From assembly GCA_045592905.1 (NCBI GenBank), contig JAZNVR010000001.1:16219-80218 (forward strand): 64,000 nt of DNA, given 5' to 3'. The notes beneath the pieces are model-generated. The model worked only from the letters and a program-made list of their open reading frames with translations, was not told the DNA's origin and did not search any database. The position numbers and the translations under genes are program-made. Source of the stretch: Candidatus Enterousia sp. (GTDB taxonomy: Bacteria; Pseudomonadota; Alphaproteobacteria; Rs-D84). Below, piece after piece: positions 1-37,313 of the stretch; position 1 is the stretch's first letter; each line of letters opens with the position of its first letter.

Positions 1-1332
1 CCAGAACGTGCCATGGCAGATGCCGCTGCATCTGATGCCAGACGTGCATCTGGCGATGCCATGCCCCTGGATGGTATACCGTTGGCAATGAAAGATTTGT
101 TTGCAACACGTGGTATTCGTACAACTGCCGCTTCACGCATGCTAGAAAATTTTGTTCCAGAATACGAATCTACCGTTTCACAAAATTTAATTAATGCAGG
201 TACGGTATTATTAGGTAAAGCAAATTTGGACGAATTTGCAATGGGCACGTTCAGCAAGACCAGTTTCTTTGGTGCACCAATAAACCCATGGCAAATTGAA
301 AAACAATTAACTGCTGGCGGTTCTTCTGGCGGTTCTACATCTGCAGTTGCAGGTGGTCTGGCGTTATGTGCAACTGGCACAGACACAGGTGGTTCAATCC
401 GTTTTCCTGCTGCAATTACAGGTATGGTTGGAATGAAACCAACATATGGTCTGTGTTCACGTTGGGGCTGCGTTGCATTTGCATCTTCGTTGGACACACC
501 AGGTCCAATCACACGTACTGTTGATGATGCAGCGTTAATGTTATCATGTATGGCCGGTCACGACGAGAAAGATTCAACAAGCAGTACAAACGGTTTTACA
601 TGCAACAAACCACTAGAACCAATATTAGGCGATGGCAAAAAATTACGTGTTGGTATCATCAAAGAATTTGCAGACGTTACAATTTCATCTGATATGAAAG
701 AATTATTTGAAAAACGTATTGCTGATTTGAAATCTATGGGTGCAGAAATTGTTGAAGTATCAATTCCAAACATTCTGGATGCATTGGCGGCATACTATAT
801 CATCGCCCCAGCCGAAGCATCATCAAACCTGGCACGTTATGACGGTATGCGTTATGGTCTGCGTATAGAAGGCAAAGATATTTATGACACATTCAAAAAG
901 ACACGTGCTGCCGGTTTTGGTGACGAAGTACAACGTCGTATGATTATTGGTACAGCTGTTCTGTCCAGCGAATCGTACGATGTATATTTCATGCAGGCTG
1001 CACGTGTTCGTCGTATGATTGCAGACAGTTTTAATTCTGCATTTGAACAGTGTGATTTAATTATATGCCCTGCATCAGCAGGTACTGCAATGCCACTGAA
1101 CACATCATTATCACCACTGGAATTCTATGCATTAGATTTATTCACCGTTGCAATGAATTTAGCAGGTATTCCTGCATGCAGTGTACCATGTGGTCTGGCA
1201 CAAAATGGTCTGCCACTAGGGATGCAGGTTGTTGGCCGTCGTTTTGATGACATGCGTGTATTACAGTTGGCAAAACACATTGAATCAGCGGCTGGTGTTA
1301 ACAACCGCCCAACAACAATTATGGGGAAATAA
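1..1332 (+). CDS. gatA: Glu-tRNA(Gln)/Asp-tRNA(Asn) amidotransferase subunit A, 5' end outside window
   Basis: Amidase signature with the GGSSGGS motif. The reading frame is open from position 1 and lacks about 50 N-terminal residues. gatB follows. Confidence 0.9.
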   Translation, partial: PERAMADAAASDARRASGDAMPLDGIPLAMKDLFATRGIRTTAASRMLENFVPEYESTVSQNLINAGTVLLGKANLDEFAMGTFSKTSFFGAPINPWQIEKQLTAGGSSGGSTSAVAGGLALCATGTDTGGSIRFPAAITGMVGMKPTYGLCSRWGCVAFASSLDTPGPITRTVDDAALMLSCMAGHDEKDSTSSTNGFTCNKPLEPILGDGKKLRVGIIKEFADVTISSDMKELFEKRIADLKSMGAEIVEVSIPNILDALAAYYIIAPAEASSNLARYDGMRYGLRIEGKDIYDTFKKTRAAGFGDEVQRRMIIGTAVLSSESYDVYFMQAARVRRMIADSFNSAFEQCDLIICPASAGTAMPLNTSLSPLEFYALDLFTVAMNLAGIPACSVPCGLAQNGLPLGMQVVGRRFDDMRVLQLAKHIESAAGVNNRPTTIMGK

Positions 1333-1398
1333 AGTGAATGAATAATATACCTTTCGGGAATAAAAAAACGACCACAACGGTCGCACCTAGAAAGGAGA

Positions 1399-1474
1399 TG
1401 GTGGCTAGGGACGGAATCGAACCGCCGACACAGGGATTTTCAGTCCCTTGCTCTACCAACTGAGCTACCTAGCC
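1399..1474 (-). tRNA. tRNA-Phe (anticodon GAA)
   Basis: The reverse complement reads GGCTAGGTAGCTCAGTTGG...GGTTCGATTCCGTCCCTAGCCACCA. Anticodon stem AGGGA/TCCCT encloses loop CTGAAAA. CCA is encoded. Confidence 0.85.
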
Positions 1475-1529
1475 AATGCGGGACAAATAATAAGATACAA
1501 AAAACAAAAAAGCAAGGGAAAAAGACAAA

Positions 1530-3050
1530 ATGTTTACAATAAAAGGCAAAACAGGCGATTGGGAAGTTGTAATTGGACTGGAAACACATATTGAAGTACT
1601 GTCCGAATCAAAATTATTCAGTGGTGCATCTGCCGATTATAATCCAACCGTATCACCAAACACCCAGGTTTCAATGGTTGATGTTGCAATGCCAGGCATG
1701 TTGCCTGTATTAAACAAATACTGTGTTGAACAAGCAATTAAGTTTGGCTTGGGTATTAATGCTGAAATATCCCGTCACAGTCGTTTTGCACGTAAACAAT
1801 ACTTTTACCCTGACCTGCCCCAAGGCTATCAGATTTCGCAACCTGCTGACGAACCACCTGTTGTTGGTCGTGGATGGGTTGAAATTATGGGTGATGATGG
1901 TAACCCTAAAAAGATTTTCATTGAACGCGCACACATGGAACAAGATGCGGCGAAAAACAAACATGATATGCACCCAACAAAATCATTCGTTGATTTTAAT
2001 CGCACCGGTGTAATGTTACTGGAAATCGTAACTTTCTTGGACACAAAAAATCCAGAAAACAATTCATACATATCATCCCCAGACGAAGCAGAACGTTATC
2101 TTCGTGCGATTCGTGAAATTGCACGTGCGTTGGGTGTTTCACGTGCCAACATGGAAGAAGGTTCAATGCGTGCCGATGTAAATGTATCTGTACGCCCTGT
2201 GGGGTCAACCGAATTCCGTACCCGCACAGAAACCAAGAACATGGTATCTTTTAAATTTATTAAAACAGCCATTGAATATGAAGCACGTCGTCAAATTGAA
2301 ATATATGAAAATGGCGGCACCGTTACCCAAGACACAATGCGTTTCCACCAAGATGATGGTACAACATCTGTTGCACGTTCAAAAGAAGACGCACTGGATT
2401 ATCGTTATTTCCCAGATCCAGACTTGTTACCAATTGAAATTTCTGACGAACAAATTGAACGCATACGCAGTACTATGCCAGAATTACCTTCTGCGACACG
2501 TGCACGTTATATAACAGAATTTGGACTATCTGAATATGACGCGGCCAGATTGACAGAAAACACAAACATATCAAAATGGTTTGATGCAGCAGTAAACAGC
2601 AAAAAACAAAATGCAAAATCAATCGCAAACTGGATGATAAGTGAACTGTTTGCACATCCAGAAAACTGGGATGAAAAGAATGAAAAGTCAGGCATAATTG
2701 ATGACGTGCGTATAATTACACCATCTGATTTATCTGAACTGGTTGAAATGATTTCCGAAAACACAGTTAATGGCAAACAAGCCAAAGAAATCTTTATCAA
2801 AATGTTAGATGGGGAAAATGGCACACCACGTGAAATTGCAGATAAATTCGGCATGAAGCAAATGACAGACACTGGTGCAATTGAAAAAATCATTGATGAT
2901 GTAATTGCATCTAATCCAGCCCAGGTTGAACAATACAAATCTGGCAAAACCGGTTTGCTTGGATTCTTTGTTGGAAATGTTATGAAGGCAACATCTGGCA
3001 CTGCAAATCCAGCCGTTGTAAACGAAATACTGCGTAAGAAATTATCATAA
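1530..3050 (+). CDS. gatB: Glu-tRNA(Gln)/Asp-tRNA(Asn) amidotransferase subunit B
   Basis: 506 aa with GatB N-terminal and YqeY-like C-terminal domains. It lies next to gatA. Confidence 0.9.
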   Translation: MFTIKGKTGDWEVVIGLETHIEVLSESKLFSGASADYNPTVSPNTQVSMVDVAMPGMLPVLNKYCVEQAIKFGLGINAEISRHSRFARKQYFYPDLPQGYQISQPADEPPVVGRGWVEIMGDDGNPKKIFIERAHMEQDAAKNKHDMHPTKSFVDFNRTGVMLLEIVTFLDTKNPENNSYISSPDEAERYLRAIREIARALGVSRANMEEGSMRADVNVSVRPVGSTEFRTRTETKNMVSFKFIKTAIEYEARRQIEIYENGGTVTQDTMRFHQDDGTTSVARSKEDALDYRYFPDPDLLPIEISDEQIERIRSTMPELPSATRARYITEFGLSEYDAARLTENTNISKWFDAAVNSKKQNAKSIANWMISELFAHPENWDEKNEKSGIIDDVRIITPSDLSELVEMISENTVNGKQAKEIFIKMLDGENGTPREIADKFGMKQMTDTGAIEKIIDDVIASNPAQVEQYKSGKTGLLGFFVGNVMKATSGTANPAVVNEILRKKLS

Positions 3051-3069
3051 AAAACAAAAAGGGAAAAAC

Positions 3070-3243
3070 ATGGCAAAAGTAATTACAATCGTTGAAAACA
3101 ATCACATCACAGGCGTTGTATATGGCACAGTAAATATTCCAGACACAGAAATCAAACAATCACCAAAACATCAGCAAATGGCTGCAAAAGTAAGCAAGGC
3201 ACGCATACAGCAACTGCGTAATCAGCACATAAAACAAAAATAA
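3070..3243 (+). CDS. small hypothetical protein (57 aa)
   Basis: Good RBS, aaaaagggaaaaacATG. Basic protein with no recognisable family. Confidence 0.25.
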   Translation: MAKVITIVENNHITGVVYGTVNIPDTEIKQSPKHQQMAAKVSKARIQQLRNQHIKQK

Positions 3244-3246
3244 GAA

Positions 3247-3603
3247 ATGATTATTATCTTTGCAAAGCAATTATCAGACGATATAAAAACAAAATTGCTG
3301 GCCGAAATTGAAAAAATTCGGCCAGACATGTGCATCACATTTGTACAACAAACACCCAAGGATATAAATGCAGAATTGTTGACTGAAACCGAAGAACTTC
3401 GGAAAGTGGAAGAAAAGATATTAGAATTCATTCCTGAAATGTGCGAAAATCCACCCAGACAAATAATAGATAAATCTGGGCTATCGTTTGATGAAAAAAA
3501 CGCACGCAAGCATCACACAAAAAATATGGTAAAAAGTTTTAATATCGCGAAAAAAAGATACGCCAAACAAAACTATCATAATGGCAGAAACAAAATAAGG
3601 TAA
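3247..3603 (+). CDS. hypothetical protein (118 aa)
   Basis: ORF in the gatB-miaB intergenic block. No recognisable motif. Confidence 0.3.
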   Translation: MIIIFAKQLSDDIKTKLLAEIEKIRPDMCITFVQQTPKDINAELLTETEELRKVEEKILEFIPEMCENPPRQIIDKSGLSFDEKNARKHHTKNMVKSFNIAKKRYAKQNYHNGRNKIR

Positions 3604-3607
3604 ACAA

Positions 3608-3787
3608 ATGCATATTCATATTTATGATGACATCATTCGCATGATGCGAGAAATGACAAAGTGGGAAGCAGACATAAAAATACATAATCGTGAAAAACGT
3701 TATAAAAAGAATTATATTCTGCGTACGAACAAATGGTCACAAATAAAACATTTACAAACAAGATATAACAACACAAAGCATAAATAA
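3608..3787 (+). CDS. small hypothetical basic protein (59 aa)
   Basis: ATG at 3608 and stop at 3785-3787. Lys/Arg-rich. Confidence 0.2.
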   Translation: MHIHIYDDIIRMMREMTKWEADIKIHNREKRYKKNYILRTNKWSQIKHLQTRYNNTKHK

Positions 3788-3791
3788 AATC

Positions 3792-5099
3792 ATGAAAAAA
3801 TTCTTTATCCAAACTTTTGGCTGTCAAATGAATGTATATGATGGTTGGCGAATCGCTGCAATGCTGGAACACCGTGGAATGTGCCGTACAGACAACATTT
3901 CTGATGCAGACATTATTATATTAAACACATGTGCTGTTCGTGCCAAAGCAACAGATAAAGTATTTTCTGCACTGGGACGTATTAGACGTGCAAAAAAGCC
4001 ATCTGCCTTGTTTGGCATTGTTGGTTGCGTCGCACGTGAATCTGGCAGCGATGCATTTCGCAGAATTCCTGAATTAAATTTTGTATTGGGACCACAAAGT
4101 TATCATAAATTACCACAAATTTTGGAAAACCCAGATGCAAGATTATTTAACATTGACCTGGGTGGATTGGAAAAATTTGATGAATTACCACAAATGGAAA
4201 AATCACCAACTGTTGCGTATATTCCAATTCAAGAAGGCTGTAATCATGTCTGTACATATTGTATTGTGCCATATACACGTGGTCGTGAAATATCACGTAA
4301 ATTTGACGATTGTGTTCGTGATACAATTCATGCCGCAAATACGGGTGCAGTAGAAATATGTTTCTTGGGTCAAAATGTAAATGGATATAAATATACAGAT
4401 GAAAACGGCACAACATATCGCCTGTCTGATTTAATCCGCCAAGCCGCAAAAATAGAATCTGTAAAACGAATCAGATTTACATCCAGTTACCCAACAGAAA
4501 TGACAGATGATTTGATTGAAATGTTTGCTATTGAACCAAAATTACTACCATTTTTAAATATGCCTATTCAAAGTGGTTCACAAAATGTTCTGACACGCAT
4601 GAACAGACCATATTCATTAGAATTATACACAGACATTATTCATAAATTACGAATCGCACGTCCAGACATTCAAATTTCTTCTGACTTCATCGTCGGATTC
4701 CCAGGTGAGTCAGATGATGATTTTGAACAAACAATGCGAATCGCCCAAGAAATTAAATATATAAATTCATATTCGTTTAAATATTCCCCACGACCACATA
4801 CAGCCGCTGCACTGATGCCTGATCAAATTCCTGAAAACATCAAGGCGGAACGTCTTGCAAAACTAGATACATTCTTGAATGAAATACAACGTGAATTTAA
4901 TATTAATTGTGTTGATAAAGATATGGAATGCCTGCTAGAAGGGCCTGACAAAACAGGTAAACATCTAATATATCGTACGCCATATATGCAACAATGCATT
5001 ATTGAAAAAACAGATAATATCACCCCTGCTCCAATTATGGCTATGATTCATATCACTAATGCAAACAAGGCATCGCTACGTGGAAAATTTATAGAATAA
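3792..5099 (+). CDS. miaB: tRNA methylthiotransferase, radical SAM (MiaB family)
   Basis: N-terminal MTTase domain FGCQMN, radical-SAM motif CNHVCTYCIVP, and a TRAM-like C-terminus. Confidence 0.75.
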   Translation: MKKFFIQTFGCQMNVYDGWRIAAMLEHRGMCRTDNISDADIIILNTCAVRAKATDKVFSALGRIRRAKKPSALFGIVGCVARESGSDAFRRIPELNFVLGPQSYHKLPQILENPDARLFNIDLGGLEKFDELPQMEKSPTVAYIPIQEGCNHVCTYCIVPYTRGREISRKFDDCVRDTIHAANTGAVEICFLGQNVNGYKYTDENGTTYRLSDLIRQAAKIESVKRIRFTSSYPTEMTDDLIEMFAIEPKLLPFLNMPIQSGSQNVLTRMNRPYSLELYTDIIHKLRIARPDIQISSDFIVGFPGESDDDFEQTMRIAQEIKYINSYSFKYSPRPHTAAALMPDQIPENIKAERLAKLDTFLNEIQREFNINCVDKDMECLLEGPDKTGKHLIYRTPYMQQCIIEKTDNITPAPIMAMIHITNANKASLRGKFIE

Positions 5100-8835: not shown

Positions 8836-8911
8836 TGGTGGACGCGCAGGGACTCGAACCCTGGACCCACTGATTAAGAGTCAGTTGCTCTACCAACTGA
8901 GCTACGCATCC
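8836..8911 (-). tRNA. tRNA-Lys (anticodon CTT)
   Basis: Reverse complement GGATGCGTAGCTCAGTTGG...TTCGAGTCCCTGCGCGTCCACCA. Anticodon stem ACTGA/TCAGT encloses loop CTCTTAA. Confidence 0.85.
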
Positions 8912-8943
8912 TGAACTAATATAATTTATCAGAACGGGGCTAA

Positions 8944-10170
8944 TTATAGACTTTTTTCTGTTAAATGCAAGTTTTTATCACAATTTATATTGCGATGTCG
9001 TAATTTTGTATTTTTTATATCCTGTATTGTTTTTGTTCCTGCCAATGTCATAACACGCCTTAGATCTGATTTTAAATAATCAAACACAGATACCACACCA
9101 CGCCATCCACCCAATGCCAATCCATAAATCACCGGTCTGCCGATTGCAACGACATCTGCACCACTTGCAATTGCCTTGAATATATGTTGACCACGACGCA
9201 CACCACTATCAAATATTATTGGGACACGTTTATTAACACGCATCGCTATTTCTTGTAAAACATCAAATGATGCTGGGGCCCCATCTAATTGACGACCTCC
9301 ATGATTAGATACCCATATTGCATCTGCACCATACGCAATCGCTATTTCTGCATCATCAGGATGTTGTATTCCCTTAACAATAACTGGCAATTTCGTCATT
9401 CGTTTGACGTGTATTATATCATATGGCGTTAACTTGTTTTGTGATGCTGCAAAAATTTGATTGATTCCGCTTCCTTTGGTTGGTCCAGTTTTCTGTGCAA
9501 CATTAGGCATCGCCAAAGGAAACTTAAAATCATTTTTTTTATCACGAATTCTGTTACCACCAACTGGTGCATCAACCGTTAATATAATTGCAGAAAAACC
9601 CAACTGTTCTGCTTGATTAACGATTGCACGATTGAACGCATCGTCTTTACTTAAATATAGTTGAAACCATTGTGGGGCACCATTACCTGCCCTTGCAATC
9701 TCTGCCAATGGTGAACTTGCATAATTACTAACACTCATTATTGTACCACTTGCGGCAGCCCCACGTGCAGTACCCGCTTCGGCTGAAACATGTGCCAAAC
9801 CATGTGCCGCAGCAGGTGCCACAATCACAGGCAAAGAAATATCTATTCCCAAAATATTGGTTGTAATATCTGGCATATCAACACCCGTCAAAACACGTGG
9901 AATGATATCAACATTATCAAATGCGGTTGTATTTCTATGCATTGTACTTTCTGTTTCTGCACCGCCATAAATATAATCAAAACCATCACGTGGAATTATC
10001 TGTGCAGCACGACTTTCCAAATCATCTATATCATAGATAACAATTTCTGTATCAGACACTGGTGCATTGTATTTGTAATTAGGTGCAATATATTTATTAA
10101 ATTTTATAACCAGCCATACTGTCAACAAAACAATCAAAATGACACATAAAATAAAAATTACTTTTCGCAT
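8944..10170 (-). CDS. FMN-dependent alpha-hydroxy-acid dehydrogenase/oxidase (L-lactate/glycolate oxidase family) with an N-terminal membrane anchor
   Basis: TIM-barrel FMN dehydrogenase motifs (SNHGGRQLD, GADVVAIGRP). The N-terminal 25 aa are hydrophobic. Confidence 0.7.
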   Translation of the reverse strand: MRKVIFILCVILIVLLTVWLVIKFNKYIAPNYKYNAPVSDTEIVIYDIDDLESRAAQIIPRDGFDYIYGGAETESTMHRNTTAFDNVDIIPRVLTGVDMPDITTNILGIDISLPVIVAPAAAHGLAHVSAEAGTARGAAASGTIMSVSNYASSPLAEIARAGNGAPQWFQLYLSKDDAFNRAIVNQAEQLGFSAIILTVDAPVGGNRIRDKKNDFKFPLAMPNVAQKTGPTKGSGINQIFAASQNKLTPYDIIHVKRMTKLPVIVKGIQHPDDAEIAIAYGADAIWVSNHGGRQLDGAPASFDVLQEIAMRVNKRVPIIFDSGVRRGQHIFKAIASGADVVAIGRPVIYGLALGGWRGVVSVFDYLKSDLRRVMTLAGTKTIQDIKNTKLRHRNINCDKNLHLTEKSL

Positions 10171-10253
10171 ATAAACACTCCTTGTTTATATGCACGATAA
10201 CATAAAAGAAAATTATATTTGATACGACAGTATTCACAAAGGATAAGACCAAT

Positions 10254-28945: not shown

Positions 28946-29718
28946 TAATTTATAAAAAATTTTGTTATCCGCACCAGTTCTGGACGAACGCTTTTCATTA
29001 ATCGCAAAACCTGCTCTATACGGCAGAAATCCTGACCCAGAATAAAATGCAAATCAAAATTATTATTAGAATCCCACGAATCCAACATTCCATAAATTCG
29101 CCCAACAAAATCAGACTTATCACCATCATCTTTGGTTAACACCAACGTTAACGCAGACGCATTTATTTTTTGCATACATAAAAACAATTCATTCCAATCA
29201 CCAGAATCTATATCTTCTAGTGATAATCCCAACGACAAATATTTATTAAAGAACAAATCATCTCGGATAACATGCGTTTGTTCAACCAATCCATCTAATG
29301 CAGAACGATGTAAAAACACCATTGCACCAGATGCACCACCCTTAAAACTATTATTTATAGCACCGGTTAAATCAGAAATTTGCGATTCGGAAACCTTTTT
29401 ATCATTCAAATAAAATCTTGCTAATATTTTGGCATTTGTTTTTTCAATCCATGGCCACAAGGTTAATACCATATTGGGTGCCACAGACACAATCGGCACA
29501 TTACGTTTAATAATAACATCTGCAACACGTGCCAGTTCCCCAGAATCAATTCCATCTTCACACCACATTGCAGCATTACTTGAAAAATCATCAAAAATTA
29601 TATTTTTATTTATCATAACACTTTCTACTTTATCATAAATATGATACAATAAAAACAGTAATGAGAAATAAATTTGATAATTTTTTACTTGGCACATTAT
29701 GGTTGTTAATATCAACAC
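28942..29718 (-). CDS. hypothetical protein
   Basis: No recognisable motif. The start is probably at the internal Met (MINKN). Confidence 0.3.
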   Translation of the reverse strand: MLILTTIMCQVKNYQIYFSLLFLLYHIYDKVESVMINKNIIFDDFSSNAAMWCEDGIDSGELARVADVIIKRNVPIVSVAPNMVLTLWPWIEKTNAKILARFYLNDKKVSESQISDLTGAINNSFKGGASGAMVFLHRSALDGLVEQTHVIRDDLFFNKYLSLGLSLEDIDSGDWNELFLCMQKINASALTLVLTKDDGDKSDFVGRIYGMLDSWDSNNNFDLHFILGQDFCRIEQVLRLMKSVRPELVRITKFFINY

Positions 29719-30545
29719 TGGGATTGTGTTTTTGGTTTAACATTCGGTTTGGTTTTAACCTGTTTTCTGCATCGCACTGGCAACATTTATCATACATGCA
29801 AGCAACACGTGCACAGATATCACCATCATTTTATATCTCGTTAATTATTGGCGTATTTTTTATGATACTTGGTTTATATATAGTTATACGTCCACGTTTT
29901 AGAAAAATAAATTTAACATCATCAACTACAGAAACAAAAAATACAACGGCACAACAAACACCTGTATCCCAAGATACCCAAGCATACGACAATTATCTTA
30001 GTCGTCCAAAGCGTCTAAACAACGATATACAACCGGCACCAGTTGCATCAAATCCTGTACCGTTCACAGCCCCAGTTATAACAAACAACACATCACCCCA
30101 GGCACCAGAAATACCACACAATTCACATGATTCAGAAATCCCAGAACTGCGTAATATATTTGAATCCACTGGATATATTGTAAAAAAACCATTAAAAATA
30201 CGTGGTGCTGAAATTCCCTTGGTTGCAATTGGTATAAATGAAACCGTTTGGATTGGTGCTTTTGACATTGAAACATCTACACTAAGAAGTGTAATTGACA
30301 CTATGCAACAAGTGTTTGCAGACACACTTGAAGACATTGAAATAAAAACTATTGGCTTTGTAATAAACGCATCTGACGCCACATCTCCAACGGCATCTGA
30401 TATATTAACATTTGCAACTTTATCTGATTTATATCAATATATGCATCAGCATCCAAACCCACCATCAGATGCCGAAACCACAGAAAATTTTGAGGCATTC
30501 TCAAATTATATAACCACAGTACTTGAATACATAGGACGATTATAA
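29661..30545 (+). CDS. hypothetical membrane protein (2 TM, Pro/Gln-rich linker, C-terminal globular domain)
   Basis: Hydrophobic N-terminus. First gene of three overlapping plus-strand ORFs. Confidence 0.35.
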   Translation: MRNKFDNFLLGTLWLLISTLGLCFWFNIRFGFNLFSASHWQHLSYMQATRAQISPSFYISLIIGVFFMILGLYIVIRPRFRKINLTSSTTETKNTTAQQTPVSQDTQAYDNYLSRPKRLNNDIQPAPVASNPVPFTAPVITNNTSPQAPEIPHNSHDSEIPELRNIFESTGYIVKKPLKIRGAEIPLVAIGINETVWIGAFDIETSTLRSVIDTMQQVFADTLEDIEIKTIGFVINASDATSPTASDILTFATLSDLYQYMHQHPNPPSDAETTENFEAFSNYITTVLEYIGRL

Positions 30546-31051
30546 TGCAAATGAACGCCAGCGTTGCAGAAAAAAAGATTTCCGAATTGGGCATGAAAGA
30601 TATGCCGCTGGCAGAACACAAACCCGTTGCGACACGTGTAAGTGCAAACTGGTTTTCAGAATACAAAAAATTATGCCGTAATTTTATGATAGAACTGTCA
30701 GATTGCATTGAAGAATTAGCGTTAATGAACATGTCCCAAGATGATTTTATGGATTTAATTATGGGCAAGAAAATCCCAGAAAACCTGTCTATACGATTTC
30801 GTATACCATTGGTCTGGGGGGGGGATTTAAGCATTGATAATATGTTCATGTGTAAAACATTTCCACATTCATACAATATGGACAGATTTATAATTATGCA
30901 AAGTGGTAACGACACAGTCTGGTTACCAGACCCACCGAAAAAAATCTATTTACCGGTCAGCACACTTAGTGGTGGTGATGGTGGAAATGGGACCGAAGAC
31001 AGATTAACAGAAACAATAGCATCACAAATTGTTGCGGATCGTGACATATAA
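30545..31051 (+). CDS. hypothetical protein
   Basis: Start overlaps the stop of the upstream gene (ATAATG). Confidence 0.35.
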   Translation: MQMNASVAEKKISELGMKDMPLAEHKPVATRVSANWFSEYKKLCRNFMIELSDCIEELALMNMSQDDFMDLIMGKKIPENLSIRFRIPLVWGGDLSIDNMFMCKTFPHSYNMDRFIIMQSGNDTVWLPDPPKKIYLPVSTLSGGDGGNGTEDRLTETIASQIVADRDI

Positions 31052-31502
31052 AACAAAAGGTAAAACTATGACATGTGCTGAATTTTTATCTGCAATGCAA
31101 TCACGCGACGCAAAAATTTTTGCACCCGCACATCAAAATCAAGTTTTATTATTAAATGGTGCCTTGCAACAACGCAGGTACGCCATGTTACCATCTTCGT
31201 TAAACGAACTATACGGTCAAATTGGTGCAATAAATCTGGATATGGGATATATATTTGGTCCAAATGAAATCATGCGAAAATCAACATATCCAATTCCCAG
31301 CATATTAAAAATAAATGATGATATTGCACCCCTGGGTAAAACGATGGGAAAAACAATATTTGGCAGAAATGATTTATTCTGGTTTGCCTTTGATGCATTT
31401 GGCACATTTTATATGTTGGACAATTTGCATTTAACACCATTACGAAAATACGATGAACCATATCATGCAATGATTGATTGTTTAATTTCTGGAAAAATTT
31501 AA
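31029..31502 (+). CDS. hypothetical protein, weakly SMI1/KNR4 (SUKH)-like
   Basis: LPSSLNELYGQIG and LFWFAFDAFGTFYMLD resemble SUKH immunity-protein motifs. Tentative. Confidence 0.3.
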   Translation: MLRIVTYKTKGKTMTCAEFLSAMQSRDAKIFAPAHQNQVLLLNGALQQRRYAMLPSSLNELYGQIGAINLDMGYIFGPNEIMRKSTYPIPSILKINDDIAPLGKTMGKTIFGRNDLFWFAFDAFGTFYMLDNLHLTPLRKYDEPYHAMIDCLISGKI

Positions 31503-31503
31503 T

Positions 31504-31722
31504 ATGAAAAAAATATCTGTATCTTTATCGGGCCACCAAACCAGCATTACACTGGAAACAGAATTTTTTGATGCGTTACAAAAACTGTCTATACGGCAGA
31601 ATCGTTCGGTCGCAGCAATTATAAACGAAATTGATTCCACACGAACCCCCGACAGAAATTTATCATCTGCGGTACGTGTTTGGGTATTACAACAAACAAT
31701 TCTGCGTTTCAGCGATAATTAA
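31504..31722 (+). CDS. ribbon-helix-helix protein (RHH_4, PF13467-like)
   Basis: VSLSGHQTSITLETEFFDAL...NLSSAVRVWVL matches the alphaproteobacterial RHH_4 consensus. Confidence 0.6.
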   Translation: MKKISVSLSGHQTSITLETEFFDALQKLSIRQNRSVAAIINEIDSTRTPDRNLSSAVRVWVLQQTILRFSDN

Positions 31723-31976
31723 TTTTTTGCCTCATCTTTCTGCCAAAAGAAATCAAATTGTTTTGATTGGGTTCTCCCACCTGCAGCCACCGGCGACCAC
31801 TTTTTGGTATAAACGCCATTATTTTTCAAACCATCCAACATTTTGCCATTTTTAATATCTTGACGTGATGCATTTTGAAATTTTCTTTCATCTGATAACT
31901 TTTTTGTTTCTTTAGCAACACTAACAATTATACTCTGTTCACTAGAATAATCATCAATGGCCTTATCATATTGCAT
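31719..31976 (-). CDS. hypothetical protein
   Basis: 85 aa. Overlaps the end of the RHH gene by 4 bp on the opposite strand. Confidence 0.3.
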   Translation of the reverse strand: MQYDKAIDDYSSEQSIIVSVAKETKKLSDERKFQNASRQDIKNGKMLDGLKNNGVYTKKWSPVAAGGRTQSKQFDFFWQKDEAKN

Positions 31977-32206
31977 AAATGCATCAAAAAAATTAATAAC
32001 AAGAATAAACCACTTGATTTTTCAAGTGGCAGGAGATTCAGAACTATCTTAACGGAAATAGCATTGTGCTTTCAATATATAACACAATTCTCCTGCCTGT
32101 TGCAGGAGTGTTTTCGTTCACCGAACGCCGTTAAAATATGGGTTCTGAAACCCAACACCTTAATATCAAGATGTCATAAGGATTACAACATAAAATAAAA
32201 TTTTTT

Positions 32207-34204
32207 TCAATCACGTGTTTTGGAAAATATAACTGTACCAAGTATTGACACAATCAGTATTATCATCATCCAATAATTTAATCCAGTATCACGATAAACT
32301 GTATTATGTGCACCCCACACAAATCCATCCAATACACCAGACACACCAACTGGCAAAGATGAAATTATCGTACCATCAGATGCAACAAATGCACTGATGC
32401 CAGAATAATTTGCACGTACAATTGGCAATCCCGATTCAATTGCATAACGACGCACCATATCCAAATGCTGATATGTACCGGGCGTATTTCCAAACCAGTT
32501 ATCATTTGTAATATTCACAATTGCATTAGCATTTGTATTATCTGGCAATAATGAATCAGAAAAAATTATTTCATAACATACAGCCGGCACAAATGTAAAA
32601 TCACCGACACTAATAATTTCTGGCCCATCACCTGGGACAATATTTGCAGGTGATGGGAATATTCCAAACGGACTATATTCACCAAACGGAACCAAATGTG
32701 ATTTATTATAAATTCTTTCTATACGTCCGTTTTCATTCGTTACAACCATTGAATTAAATACACCACCAGAATCAAAAGTATTCGCCCCAAACACAACTGG
32801 CTTTTTCAACACAGAAGCCATTTCTATATTATCCGATGGCAAAACCACAAACGGATAAGATGTTTCTGGCATAATAATAATATCAAACACGCCATCAACA
32901 GACGATAATGCGACTAAATTACTTAAATTATATTCTGCACGCTGTAATGCTTCTACCCTATTATGTGTTGCCTTTTGTGATTGCGATGCTGCAGGTTGAA
33001 CAATACGCAATATATGTGTTGCATCATTCATACCATTGCGTGCATTTACAATATTTTGTTCACCAAGTTGCACACCATATACAAGCATTCCAGAAAACAT
33101 CAATAAAACAATCCATACAAATATATTCTTTTTATGTCTTAACAGTTCTACAAAACCTGCAACCATTCCGACGATAATAAACGTCAATCCCAACGCCCCC
33201 CACACAGACATAGAATTTGCAATTACAGGCATTTGAATTGTAACATTTGCAATTGGATTCCATGGGAACCCTGTTAACACCCACTCACGTGCCCACAAGA
33301 CCAAGGTCCAAACACATGCAAATAAAAATATTCTGGATGCAGATGACGTTTTCTTTTGAGATATTGCAACAAACGGCCACGAAAATATTAACCACCCTGC
33401 CAACATCAAACCAATCGCCCCAGGCACAGTCCACATTGCGTATTGTTCGGCAATTTCAGGTGCAACATATATAGAATGTAACACCCACCAAAACATAAAC
33501 AGACCATACATTGCCCCAAATGGTGCCACACGTAAAAATGAGTGCCAAAAACCACCAATTTTTTTATTACGTACCGTTAACCAATACGCACCCCCAACAC
33601 CTAATAATGTCATCCACCATTGATAAAAAGGTGCAAAACCAAACGACGCAATCGCACCAAACACACCGTATAGAACATATTGTTCAACACTATTAACTTT
33701 AACTTTTATTTTTTGTAAAAAATTAATTAACGATGCCCCTGGGCAACAAGAACCATCTGAACAAGAAATACTAAATTCATTTGCATACGGATTTTTTATA
33801 CCCATTTTTGACAGAATTTTTGTTTCTTTGTTTTCCATAACAATTGCATCATCATTATTTATATGGTCATATCCTAATAAATGCAATACGCCATGCACAA
33901 CCATATGTGAAGTATGATTCTTTAATGATATTTTTTCTTGTTTTGCTTCACGTGCAACTGTATCCAACGAGATATAGATATCGCCCAACAAAATATCATC
34001 CCCCAATTCAAAAGACAGTACATTTGTTGGTTTATTAATATTCCGATATTTATGATTAATTTTTTTTATTTCTTTATCATTTGTTAAAATGATAGATACT
34101 TCTGAATTTTTATATTTATCACCCACAACCGCACTTACGATTTTTCCAAAATTTATTTTATATTTTTTCCAACGATTATCATGAATATCAACATATACTT
34201 TCAT
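32207..34204 (-). CDS. fused rRNA maturation endoribonuclease YbeY / apolipoprotein N-acyltransferase Lnt
   Basis: Residues 1-135 are YbeY (PTNVLSF, HGVLHLLGYDH). A Cys-rich linker follows. Residues from about 150 to 665 are Lnt (multi-TM N-terminus, CN-hydrolase domain with AVCYEIIF). One continuous ORF. Confidence 0.7.
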   Translation of the reverse strand: MKVYVDIHDNRWKKYKINFGKIVSAVVGDKYKNSEVSIILTNDKEIKKINHKYRNINKPTNVLSFELGDDILLGDIYISLDTVAREAKQEKISLKNHTSHMVVHGVLHLLGYDHINNDDAIVMENKETKILSKMGIKNPYANEFSISCSDGSCCPGASLINFLQKIKVKVNSVEQYVLYGVFGAIASFGFAPFYQWWMTLLGVGGAYWLTVRNKKIGGFWHSFLRVAPFGAMYGLFMFWWVLHSIYVAPEIAEQYAMWTVPGAIGLMLAGWLIFSWPFVAISQKKTSSASRIFLFACVWTLVLWAREWVLTGFPWNPIANVTIQMPVIANSMSVWGALGLTFIIVGMVAGFVELLRHKKNIFVWIVLLMFSGMLVYGVQLGEQNIVNARNGMNDATHILRIVQPAASQSQKATHNRVEALQRAEYNLSNLVALSSVDGVFDIIIMPETSYPFVVLPSDNIEMASVLKKPVVFGANTFDSGGVFNSMVVTNENGRIERIYNKSHLVPFGEYSPFGIFPSPANIVPGDGPEIISVGDFTFVPAVCYEIIFSDSLLPDNTNANAIVNITNDNWFGNTPGTYQHLDMVRRYAIESGLPIVRANYSGISAFVASDGTIISSLPVGVSGVLDGFVWGAHNTVYRDTGLNYWMMIILIVSILGTVIFSKTRD

Positions 34205-34223
34205 AAGTACTTTCCTTTTTGAT

Positions 34224-35615
34224 TTAAGTCAAATTACCACTATATTCTGTTCCATACAACAAAACATCCCGTCTGGCATTTTTCGTATTTTTCTGTCTGA
34301 TTTGTCGTATTGCAGAATTAAAAGAAATTGTTTTGGCGGGCACATCAATTTTATCCTGTTGTACAAAATCCAAGACACTTTTACCTTCTGCGAACTGAGA
34401 TAAGAACGATTTAACTGTTGAAGACTTGCCATATATTTTTGCCTGTTTTAGTGCATATTGCACAGTTTGTTCATTAATTATAAAATGCCCATCTTGATAA
34501 ACCTGTGCCAATGTTATTGATGAAAAAGCATCACGTGGCAAATCAAAAAAATCTTGGGCACTTATTGCACCGACCGCAAAGGCAGCACACCACCAACGTC
34601 TTTTCATTGTACCATCCCGCCATTTTTTTACCCCAGGATAATATTGAAAAGCATCTGCGATTTCTTGTGATGATGTTGCATTTGATACAGCATCTGCAAT
34701 ACTTACCATATCCGATGGGCGCTGATAACCCGCCATCAAAATCGCAATTGCTTGTTGTGCATATATATTTTTTTTATCTTTTATAGCGTTTTTTAGTTTT
34801 GGTAATGTTTCATATATTAAATGTCTTTGTACTTGTTGGTAATTATAATCATGTGTCCACTGTTTTGTTTTACCAGGTGTATTTGGATGTTTATGCAGTA
34901 CAGCATTGTTATCATAAATATAATGCCACGTCAGTCCCAATCCATTTGTTTCACGACTTTCACCAATTTGCAACACAGATTTTTCACGATATGTTTCTAG
35001 TTCTGTTAAACCAACCGCTATATATGGCCAATATTCCGTTAACGATTTTTTTACAAAATCTGCATCTGATGGATTAATTGTTTTTGACTTTACCGTTGTT
35101 CTTATACCAAACGGTCCCTGCTCTTGTTTCTTTTCTACTATTTCTTTTTCATCTTCTGAATTAGAACTTATTTGATTTGAAACCACATGTCCACCGGCAA
35201 ACATCATACTTGCAAAAACCATATAGTACATCAAATAACTTTCCACCCATGGATGCATTGTTGTAAATTTTGTACTGCCTTTATTTTTAGTTGCCTGTTC
35301 TGTATTTCTGATAATAACATTGTCCACCAACAGATAATTTAATCCACGTGTTATATATTCAGACATCCACAGCATTCCAACACCAGACCATTTAGCAAAT
35401 TGTTGTGCATTTTCTTTTAACCAAACAGCCAAATTGTCCAAATCAAGTTGAAAATCCATTTTACCGAAAGCATTCTTATATATTGCACCAACTTGATTCA
35501 AACGAACCGTATCTGGGATGTTTTTTTTCATCAAATTTTCACGCATTTTTTTCAATTTATCTGCGGCACGACGAACATCATCACCACGTTTTTGTGCAAC
35601 TGTTTTTGCAGACAT
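34224..35615 (-). CDS. large hypothetical protein with no signal peptide
   Basis: 463 aa with no recognisable domain. Confidence 0.4.
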   Translation of the reverse strand: MSAKTVAQKRGDDVRRAADKLKKMRENLMKKNIPDTVRLNQVGAIYKNAFGKMDFQLDLDNLAVWLKENAQQFAKWSGVGMLWMSEYITRGLNYLLVDNVIIRNTEQATKNKGSTKFTTMHPWVESYLMYYMVFASMMFAGGHVVSNQISSNSEDEKEIVEKKQEQGPFGIRTTVKSKTINPSDADFVKKSLTEYWPYIAVGLTELETYREKSVLQIGESRETNGLGLTWHYIYDNNAVLHKHPNTPGKTKQWTHDYNYQQVQRHLIYETLPKLKNAIKDKKNIYAQQAIAILMAGYQRPSDMVSIADAVSNATSSQEIADAFQYYPGVKKWRDGTMKRRWWCAAFAVGAISAQDFFDLPRDAFSSITLAQVYQDGHFIINEQTVQYALKQAKIYGKSSTVKSFLSQFAEGKSVLDFVQQDKIDVPAKTISFNSAIRQIRQKNTKNARRDVLLYGTEYSGNLT

Positions 35616-35617
35616 GG

Positions 35618-35974
35618 CTACCCCCTTCCCAGTCCTGATTTTTTAGCAATTCGTGATCGTTTTCTGGAATACGCAGGTGCCACAAACGGATAGTCATTTG
35701 GCAACCCCCATTTTTCCCGATATTGCTGTGGTGTCAGATTAAATTTTCTTTTGATATATCTGCGTAACATCACATGCCATGTTCCATCTTCCAAGCATTG
35801 TATTTTATCAGGATGTACAGAATCTTGAATTTGTTCTTCGGTAACCGTTGTACCACGCAGTATTTCACGTGCATTTTTTACTGCCATTTCCATAGTTAAT
35901 TTTGGATTTGCAGAAATTGCCGCTGCTGCCAAATTCGCAACAGCCAACGTAAAATCAGAATTTTTATTTACCAA
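35618..35974 (-). CDS. mucR: MucR/Ros family transcriptional regulator
   Basis: C-terminus CLEDG...LTPQQYREKWGLPNDYPFVAPAYSRKRSRIAK matches Ros/MucR. A likely TTG start with RBS AAGGA lies near 35974. The ORF-track extension to 36094 would overlap rarA. Confidence 0.7.
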   Translation of the reverse strand: MVNKNSDFTLAVANLAAAAISANPKLTMEMAVKNAREILRGTTVTEEQIQDSVHPDKIQCLEDGTWHVMLRRYIKRKFNLTPQQYREKWGLPNDYPFVAPAYSRKRSRIAKKSGLGRG

Positions 35975-36044
35975 CTTGCCATTTCCTTTATATTTTAATA
36001 GAATAATTATATCACAAATAAACCATAAATAAAAGCCAAGTAAA

Positions 36045-37313
36045 ATGACACGACCACTTGCAGATTTGATGCGTCCGAACACAATAAATGACATTGTAGG
36101 TCAAACTGCATTACTGGGCGAAAACGGCATTGTTCGTCGCATGGTTGAAAACAAAAAATTATCAAATTTGATTCTGTGGGGGCCGCCCGGCTGTGGAAAA
36201 ACAACAATTGCACGTGCATTGGCAAATTCTGTTGATATGGATTTTGTTCCGATGTCTGCAGTATTTTCTGGCACCGCTGATATAAAAAAAGCAATGGATG
36301 CGGCACGTATGAATCGTGACATTGGTCGCAGCACATTACTGTTTATTGATGAAATTCATCGCTTTAATAAAACCCAACAGGATACATTACTGCCATATCT
36401 TGAAGATGGGACTGTTGTATTTATGGGTGCAACCACCGAAAACCCCAGTTTTAATTTGAATAATGCATTATTATCACGTTGCCATATTGGCGTACTGTCG
36501 GGACTGTCCAGCGAAGATTTATTAACATTGATGGCACGTGCTGAAAAATTCTTGGGCAAACAATTACCACTGGATGAAAACGCCCGCACGCACTTGGCAC
36601 AAATGGCAGATGGCGATGCACGATTTTTACTGAACACTGTTGAATATTTAGCAAACGCAAATTTCAAAGACACTTTAACCCCAGATGCCTTGGATTCTGC
36701 CGTACAGAAACGTGCACCACTATCAGACCGACATGGTGACGAACATTATAATTTAATATCTGCGGTGCATAAATCCCTGCGTGCCAGTGATACAGATGCG
36801 GCATTATATTGGGCGGCCCGCATGATGACATCCGGCCAGGACCCAATGTATTTATTTCGTCGTTTGACCCGCTTTGCGGTTGAAGATGTGGGACTTGCCG
36901 ACCCAAACGCATTACAGGTTGCGATTGCGGCATGGAACGCATATGAACGTCTGGGCAGTCCCGAAGGCGACTTGGCCCTGACCCAATTGGTTATATATCT
37001 TGGCACTGCCCCAAAAAGCATTGGCAATTACAAGGCACAAAAGGCTGCATACGCTGCCGCCCACGCCACCGGTTCATTGATGCCACCCAAAAATATATTA
37101 AATGCCCCAACAAAAATGATGAAAGATTTGGGTTATAACGATGGATATATTTATGACCCAGACACAGCAAACGGATTTTCTGGTCAGAATTGTTTTCCCG
37201 AAAGTATGGGTCGTCAAAAATATTATTTCCCTGTTGAACGTGGGTTTGAACGTGAAATCAAAAAGCGTCTTGAATACTGGGACAAACTGCGTGAACAATT
37301 AAAGAAAGATTAA
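36045..37313 (+). CDS. rarA: replication-associated recombination protein A (AAA+ ATPase)
   Basis: Walker A motif GPPGCGKTT and the MgsA C-terminal domain. Confidence 0.85.
   Translation: MTRPLADLMRPNTINDIVGQTALLGENGIVRRMVENKKLSNLILWGPPGCGKTTIARALANSVDMDFVPMSAVFSGTADIKKAMDAARMNRDIGRSTLLFIDEIHRFNKTQQDTLLPYLEDGTVVFMGATTENPSFNLNNALLSRCHIGVLSGLSSEDLLTLMARAEKFLGKQLPLDENARTHLAQMADGDARFLLNTVEYLANANFKDTLTPDALDSAVQKRAPLSDRHGDEHYNLISAVHKSLRASDTDAALYWAARMMTSGQDPMYLFRRLTRFAVEDVGLADPNALQVAIAAWNAYERLGSPEGDLALTQLVIYLGTAPKSIGNYKAQKAAYAAAHATGSLMPPKNILNAPTKMMKDLGYNDGYIYDPDTANGFSGQNCFPESMGRQKYYFPVERGFEREIKKRLEYWDKLREQLKKD

Follow-up and report, generated by a model that had tools for sequence, protein, structure and literature searches.

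The ybeY::lnt gene and its two halves

The window analyzed here, a stretch of 64,000 nucleotides (nt) from Candidatus Enterousia sp., carries on its minus strand a gene that joins the endoribonuclease YbeY to the apolipoprotein N-acyltransferase Lnt. This ybeY::lnt fusion gene is a single open reading frame (ORF) of 665 codons plus a stop codon (32207..34204), assigned with Pfam and NCBIfam. It begins at an ATG that has a Shine-Dalgarno (SD)-like AAGGA 8 nt upstream (34213..34217, same strand), and the stop codon of the upstream gene lies 19 nt 5′ of this ATG. An earlier note on this DNA had described one 665-amino-acid (aa) ORF with a complete YbeY, the motif HGVLHLLGYDH, a Cys-rich linker and a full Lnt, which was correct in every detail when set against the ORF, Pfam, NCBIfam and structure alignments.

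Read from the N-terminus, and with all parts on the minus strand, the protein starts with the YbeY domain (aa 1–145, 33770..34204), where HGVLHLLGYDH gives the zinc motif H104-x3-H108-x5-H114 and R54 is also found. A stretch of about 20 Cys-rich residues that belongs to neither enzyme (approximately aa 146–165) follows and includes SCSDGSCCPGAS (aa 147–158, nt 33731–33766). Within this linker, the alignment places a Cys motif, C-SDGS-CCPG, at aa 148–156 (33737..33763), and an AlphaFold2 (AF2) model places a short predicted helix at aa 157–165 (33710..33736), ahead of the first transmembrane helix of Lnt. The peptide across the junction in the window protein is NPYANEFSISCSDGSCCPGASLINFLQK. The membrane domain of Lnt, with helices 1–7, occupies aa 166–390 (33035..33709; from Pfam, with the AF2 helices lying between residues 173 and 388), followed by the periplasmic nitrilase-like CN_hydrolase domain (aa 391–640, 32285..33034) with the triad E447-K501-C543 and E509. 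The final transmembrane helix and the stop codon close the gene (aa 641–665, 32207..32284; AF2 helix at 642–664 and hydropathy peak at 642–660). A Kyte-Doolittle scan was too crude for counting helices, which were taken from the alignment to PDB structures and from the AF2 model.

In other bacteria, YbeY takes part in 16S rRNA 3′-end maturation and in ribosome quality control. The N-terminal half of the fusion is clearly placed in this family by Pfam YbeY (PF02130) at aa 18–133, with an E-value of 3e-35 and 121.3 bits against a cut-off of 25, and by the NCBIfam equivalog TIGR00043, with 130.6 bits against a cut-off of 45. Residues 9–143 align with residues 14–153 of the 155-residue E. coli YbeY of known structure, and a fold search with the N-terminal part of the AF2 model matched E. 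coli YbeY (1xm5) with template modelling (TM) scores of 0.77–0.79 and an E-value of about 1e-9; the predicted local distance difference test (pLDDT) is 74–88 across most of aa 1–140. The zinc ligands H104, H108 and H114 are invariant in the 27 fused proteins compared, the most divergent included, and R54, which we take to be the counterpart of R59 of E. coli YbeY, is conserved in all but one of them (26/27). Instead of the usual soluble, single-domain form of ~150 aa, YbeY here makes up the beginning of a membrane protein of 665 aa, a departure that is no argument against homology.

Lnt combines eight helices with a nitrilase-like domain that faces the periplasm and gives lipoproteins their third acyl chain. 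Its hallmarks are found in the rest of the fusion, with LNT_N (PF20154) at aa 183–347 (63 bits, cut-off 27.1), CN_hydrolase (PF00795) at aa 466–624 (66.4 bits, cut-off 23.2) and the NCBIfam equivalog TIGR00546 for lnt (213.8 bits, cut-off 132.9). Residue 178 aligns with residue 16 of E. coli Lnt, which puts the junction at the equivalent of Lnt residue 1. Taking E267, K335 and C387 of the E. coli enzyme as the reference triad, K501 aligns with K335 and E509 with E343 in the alignment to 8q2p, and E447 and C543 were assigned by aligning the PET and CYE motifs with P. aeruginosa and E. coli Lnt; none of the four residues varies among the 27 fused proteins. The AF2 model of the whole fusion, built on the alignment, has a mean pLDDT of 83.8 and a predicted TM-score of 0.73, and its Lnt part matched the E. 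coli and P. aeruginosa Lnt structures with target-normalised TM-scores of 0.73–0.80.

Pairwise ratios of nonsynonymous to synonymous substitution (dN/dS, Nei-Gojobori) among 11 orthologous genes were 0.07–0.23 for the YbeY part and 0.11–0.27 for the Lnt part, figures that are upper estimates because synonymous sites are near saturation. The linker was noisier, with 0.02–1.1 over 31 codons. These values indicate that purifying selection acts on both halves; YbeY and Lnt are both complete in the sequence, and both look functional.

The earlier note had seen a tension in the fusion of two enzymes that act in different compartments. This tension is only apparent, as the N and C termini of Lnt are cytoplasmic in the E. 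coli and P. aeruginosa crystal structures (PMC5500888). With the N-terminus of Lnt in the cytoplasm and YbeY joined at Lnt residue 1, YbeY would stay cytoplasmic and become tethered to the membrane, so that the fusion predicts a cytoplasmic YbeY at the inner-membrane surface and an Lnt catalytic domain in the periplasm.

Conservation of the frame and its product

The fusion is not confined to this genome. All of the 120 best homologues, counted as protein clusters, carry YbeY, LNT_N and CN_hydrolase together at 62–78% identity and lengths of 642–698 aa, and the fused clusters in this range of identity number more than 120. The earlier note had proposed comparing orthologous loci, and the same uninterrupted gene was found in 10 independent loci from metagenome-assembled genomes (MAGs), mostly of Candidatus Enterousia sp., one of them encoding a protein 54% identical to that of the window. 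An exhaustive search of 50%-identity representatives added eight full-length fused clusters at 34–57% identity (P0121–P0124, P0126, P0128, P0139 and P0142), and a further search seeded with P0139 listed 55 more, whose source MAGs carry the labels Rickettsiales, Alphaproteobacteria or Proteobacteria bacterium. Altogether, NCBI, ENA, JGI and Logan assemblies contribute more than 175 protein clusters with the same unbroken frame, and the fused architecture persists down to ~30% identity. The acidic stretch of the linker differs among lineages by one to three whole residues, and each homologue listed is one ORF through the linker. Since the frame is kept in the 120 best homologues and in 10 independent assemblies, chance and sequencing error are excluded.

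Two irregularities were noticed among these records. In clusters P0043 and P0303, some assemblies have the fusion as two called genes (126 and 520 aa on one ENA contig) or, where a contig breaks off, as incomplete "YbeY" and "Lnt" pieces. Locus L007, from an Enterousia MAG, has a ~220-nt copy, 97–100% identical to an internal segment of lnt (8878–9101 and 10033–10250), ~30 nt past the end of the fusion gene, which stems either from a recent segmental duplication or from faulty assembly.

The closest genome matches are Candidatus Enterousia, and one of the loci (L009, JBKSMR01) is from MAG 125_22-69, assigned to Enterousia in the order Rs-D84. Members of Enterousia and Rs-D84 are described as gut bacteria of farm animals with genomes of 0.75–1.0 Mb and a likely partner-dependent lifestyle (PMC12306168). 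The suggestion of a real gene fusion linked with genome reduction is supported by the conservation of the gene, by the signs of purifying selection in both halves and by Rs-D84 genomes of less than 1 Mb (PMC12306168). As to scope, the fusion proved real but much older and wider than the single genome in which it was first noticed, as fused proteins only ~30–40% identical to that of the window exist; the fusion is older than the genus Enterousia. We consider it likely, with good though not full confidence, that ybeY::lnt arose by a true gene fusion long ago and that its product is a single bifunctional protein of the inner membrane.

The strongest competitor of this reading, although an unlikely one, is that the single ORF gives two proteins, either because translation also starts inside it, close to the junction, or because a protease cuts the flexible linker, so that the fusion exists at the gene level only. 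The ATG of the fusion has a conserved SD, with a duplex energy to the anti-SD sequence of −5.6 kcal/mol in the window and of −3.9 to −9.1 kcal/mol across 11 loci, including the 10 orthologous ones. A candidate for an internal start is the in-frame ATG of M134, in MGIKNPY, which is present in the window and in nine loci of >70% identity and from which the earlier note had thought Lnt might be made separately. This now seems improbable and the candidate was rejected: M134 has no SD, with duplex energies of +2.4 to −3.7 kcal/mol, it sits within the last helix of YbeY, ahead of the conserved NPY, and the Met is not conserved, as 16 of the 27 fused homologues have Leu there and the number rises to 18 when Ile and Phe are counted as well. 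Between M134 and the first transmembrane helix, the orthologous loci have no further in-frame start codon whose position is conserved.

Cleavage finds more room in the window protein, where pLDDT falls below 50 at aa 142–156. This part of the linker is predicted to be disordered and could be a cleavage site, which weighs against a single product. Nevertheless, in the divergent fusions P0124, P0126 and P0128 only ~5–10 residues separate NPY from the first transmembrane helix (P0124 reads NPYKKSNTFFIMIICG), and such a short linker leaves little room for a processing site. Judged from these comparisons, the gene most likely yields one polypeptide.

In Enterousia and its nearest relatives, the junction is built of NPY, two to six mostly acidic residues, C-x4-CCPG, the short helix and the first transmembrane helix, and the alternation of hydrophobic and basic residues in the helix (aa 157–165) is conserved in the alignment. 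All 19 proteins of the Enterousia-type clade share C148, C154, P155 and G156, and only one of them lacks C153. The motif C-x4-CCPG is still found in L008, at 54% identity, and P0121, at 57%, has C-x4-C-x2-CPG, while the ~25-residue segment around it is a gap in the other eight, divergent fusions of the 27 aligned. The alignment indicates that the Cys motif is a later, clade-specific insertion under constraint, possibly a metal site, a redox-sensitive hinge or a dimer contact. The YbeY domain and the cytoplasmic loops of Lnt were searched for a fourth ligand or a partner residue specific to the clade, and nothing convincing emerged. We also considered and rejected a lipobox, as the −3 position is variable (S, D, V and others), no signal peptide precedes the motif, and it follows a cytoplasmic domain.

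Gene order and origin of the fusion

The earlier note had pointed out that phoH and corC are missing here, and this holds beyond the locus itself: no PhoH, CBS or CorC_HlyC domain was found in the 40 long window ORFs scanned, which included the neighbors of the fusion, and neither gene was found in the gene tables of the fused loci L012–L015 and L018–L022. The neighbors of the fusion in the window are a 463-aa protein with no Pfam match, a Ros/MucR protein, RarA and an RHH_4 protein. In three divergent fused loci (L013/L014, L018 and L019), miaB overlaps the start of the fusion by 4–10 nt, and in two of these three gatCAB precedes miaB; miaB next to the fusion looks like a remnant of the old cluster minus phoH and corC. 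The window has its own miaB (3792..5099, plus strand; UPF0004 and Radical_SAM), ~29 kb from the fusion and on the opposite strand, whose product is 62–64% identical to that of the miaB adjoining the fusion in L018 and L019. Together with gatA and gatB, it forms a block (13–5099, plus strand) that adjoins ybeY::lnt in the relatives L013 and L019. A single ~29-kb inversion with breakpoints after miaB (~5100) and before the fusion (~34210) would yield the layout of the window. The upstream side has been rearranged repeatedly, with miaB, ftsK or a variable unknown/TPR protein plus MucR and RarA found there.

The downstream side is more stable. In the window, a convergent block on the plus strand (29661–31722) holds the RHH_4 gene (31504–31722) and genes for three proteins with no Pfam match, of 157, 168 and 294 aa. 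This block is homologous among the window, L005, L008 and L019, with the three proteins at sizes of ~150, 168 and 290–350 aa, and it stays beside the fusion even where the fusion proteins are ~30–40% identical to that of the window; in L020–L022, a block of like order and gene sizes follows the fusion, as judged by order and size alone. For P0139, whose nearest Lnt relatives are unfused, an independent fusion was considered and rejected, since its downstream genes, for DksA, thioredoxin and an aminotransferase V, are also found at the fused locus L021, and shared ancestry is at least as likely. Shared synteny argues for one ancient origin of the fusion.

Points on the other side come from a neighbor-joining tree of the Lnt part. 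The tree groups the fused proteins, with a bootstrap of 32/100 for the whole group, and five standalone Lnts (P0132, P0138, P0141, P0144 and P0145) nest among them, which would fit a later separation of the genes or multiple fusion and fission events, both possible. With so weak a bootstrap we make no claim of a single origin from the tree alone, and synteny is the stronger argument. One of the five nested standalone lnt genes is preceded by an unrelated Cys-rich secreted protein. It is the gene for P0132 (in the region 1102–9080 of L016), whose product is 43% identical to the Lnt part of the window protein; the Cys-rich secreted protein replaces ybeY upstream of it, and a type II CRISPR-Cas9 locus (Cas9, Cas1 and Cas2) lies 2 kb downstream.

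Several features of the flanking DNA were also recorded. The 463-aa ORF (34224–35615, minus strand) is the upstream gene whose stop lies 19 nt ahead of the fusion, and the two are probably co-transcribed. It evolves fast, being just 34% identical in L005 when the flanking genes are 76–93% identical, and its place is taken by a 651-aa ORF in L008 and by a 610-aa TPR protein in L020. The Ros/MucR ORF (35618–36094, minus strand), if its first ATG is taken as the start, shares 50 nt with the beginning of the divergent rarA (MgsA; 36045–37313, plus strand); its Pfam match begins at residue 77, and the true start is probably further downstream. On the other side, the gap of 485 nt between the fusion gene and the convergent RHH_4 gene (31723–32206) is long for a coding density of ~90%. 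It holds terminator-like hairpins at 32009–32030, 32090–32108 and 32139–32154, the last two making up a putative terminator region 3′ of the fusion stop, between the convergent genes (32090..32154, minus strand), that was found by a consensus scan only. Rfam and tRNA scans of this gap gave no match to an RNA gene.

Interpretation and known systems

The most likely origin, we propose, is that, in a genome-reduced lineage of the Alphaproteobacteria, phoH and corC first disappeared from an ancestral miaB-phoH-ybeY-corC-lnt cluster and the ybeY stop codon followed, giving the fusion. An intact zinc-dependent RNase YbeY of 145 residues runs into the first transmembrane helix of an intact Lnt, and the product would remain unprocessed, keep both activities and span the inner membrane with YbeY on its cytoplasmic face. 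The two activities are probably still independent, the fusion serving to fix their co-expression and to spare regulatory sequence.

A functional coupling of the two halves, with YbeY needed at the membrane (for example, at ribosomes or mRNAs engaged in lipoprotein secretion) or with YbeY and Lnt regulating each other, seems very unlikely to us. Across proteobacteria, ybeY and lnt keep their places next to each other (operon ybeZYX-lnt), which would favor it, but fusion of adjacent genes after loss of the intervening ones is an expected neutral outcome of genome reduction. Similarly, the fusion has been retained across deep divergence, down to ~30% identity, although one subclade seemingly separated the genes again. 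The Enterousia clade gained a conserved Cys motif right at the junction; divergent fusions do without this motif, no clade-specific partner residues were found, and literature searches gave no published link between YbeY and lipoprotein maturation. A bolder "Rosetta-stone" version, in which the small-subunit work of YbeY takes place at the inner membrane and the Enterousia C-x4-CCPG is a metal or redox hinge coupling the RNase to the state of the envelope, is a long shot that we judge improbable; if true, it would by extension suggest a membrane YbeY wherever ybeY and lnt are co-transcribed. Finally, an artefact (a frameshift, a missed stop or a chimeric assembly joining two genes, akin to the lost stop/start or sequencing error that the earlier note had allowed for) is refuted for practical purposes by conservation over hundreds of independent assemblies, as the same frame occurs in the more than 175 clusters and the 10 loci, the amino acids of the junction motif are conserved, and nothing was found in favor of an artefact, the split ENA genes being an assembly error in the opposite direction.

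A gene fusion encoding one membrane-anchored protein is mechanistically unsurprising as the outcome of an operon collapse; this one is no artefact, has a long history and is found widely in an uncultured clade. Full-text literature searches on YbeY in combination with a fusion or with Lnt, by its short or full name, turned up papers on the unfused genes of the E. coli and Salmonella operon alone, and none on a fusion. In the full-length records found, the fused proteins are named only "apolipoprotein N-acyltransferase", and surveys based on names would score ybeY as missing in Rs-D84, Enterousia and related genomes. How exactly the near-universal YbeY acts is still a matter of debate (bioRxiv 10.1101/2023.03.20.533420). 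A clade in which YbeY is apparently made only in a membrane-anchored form suggests that free diffusion is not needed, which constrains models of how YbeY meets the 30S subunit or its partners. The fusion also offers a concrete handle on the long-noted and unexplained co-transcription of ybeY and lnt in proteobacteria, and it documents how genome reduction reshapes operons, with interior genes lost and the survivors fused by read-through.

Compared with standalone YbeY from E. coli (1XM5) and H. influenzae (1XAX), the fusion has the same whole domain and the same H-x3-H-x5-H zinc site, and its YbeY is 38% identical to that of E. coli in the structural alignment. Standalone YbeY is a free soluble protein of ~155 aa, whereas the C-terminus of the fusion's YbeY runs on into a membrane protein and should be confined to the membrane surface. 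Likewise, standalone Lnt from E. coli (5N6H, 5XHQ and 5VRG) and P. aeruginosa (5N6M) has the same eight-helix membrane domain, the same periplasmic nitrilase-like domain, the same E-K-C triad and the same E343 equivalent, but the fusion's Lnt is just 20–22% identical to E. coli Lnt in structural alignments and carries an N-terminal extension of ~165 residues that is a second enzyme.

At the level of gene order, the nearest counterparts are the proteobacterial miaB-phoH-ybeY-corC-lnt cluster, the order in Alphaproteobacteria such as Sinorhizobium, and the corresponding genes of E. coli. In the latter, ybeZ-ybeY-ybeX-lnt forms one operon (bioRxiv 10.1101/2023.03.20.533420). Both arrangements have the same two enzymes in the same 5′-to-3′ order as the fusion (ybeZ being phoH and ybeX corC), and against the miaB-phoH-ybeY-corC-lnt cluster the fusion locus lacks phoH and corC and has ybeY and lnt in one frame. 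Other fusions of these enzymes are mycobacterial Ppm1, where an Lnt-like domain is fused to a polyprenol-phosphate-mannose synthase, and the plant chloroplast YbeY with an added HAD-like domain; an 816-aa Lnt homologue found here (P0175) may be of the Ppm1 type. These multidomain forms resemble ybeY::lnt in that Lnt and YbeY tolerate fusion to other catalytic domains, and they differ from it in their partners and domain orders, as neither joins YbeY to Lnt. Each half of ybeY::lnt is ordinary for its family, and it is the covalent link and the membrane anchoring of YbeY that are unusual.

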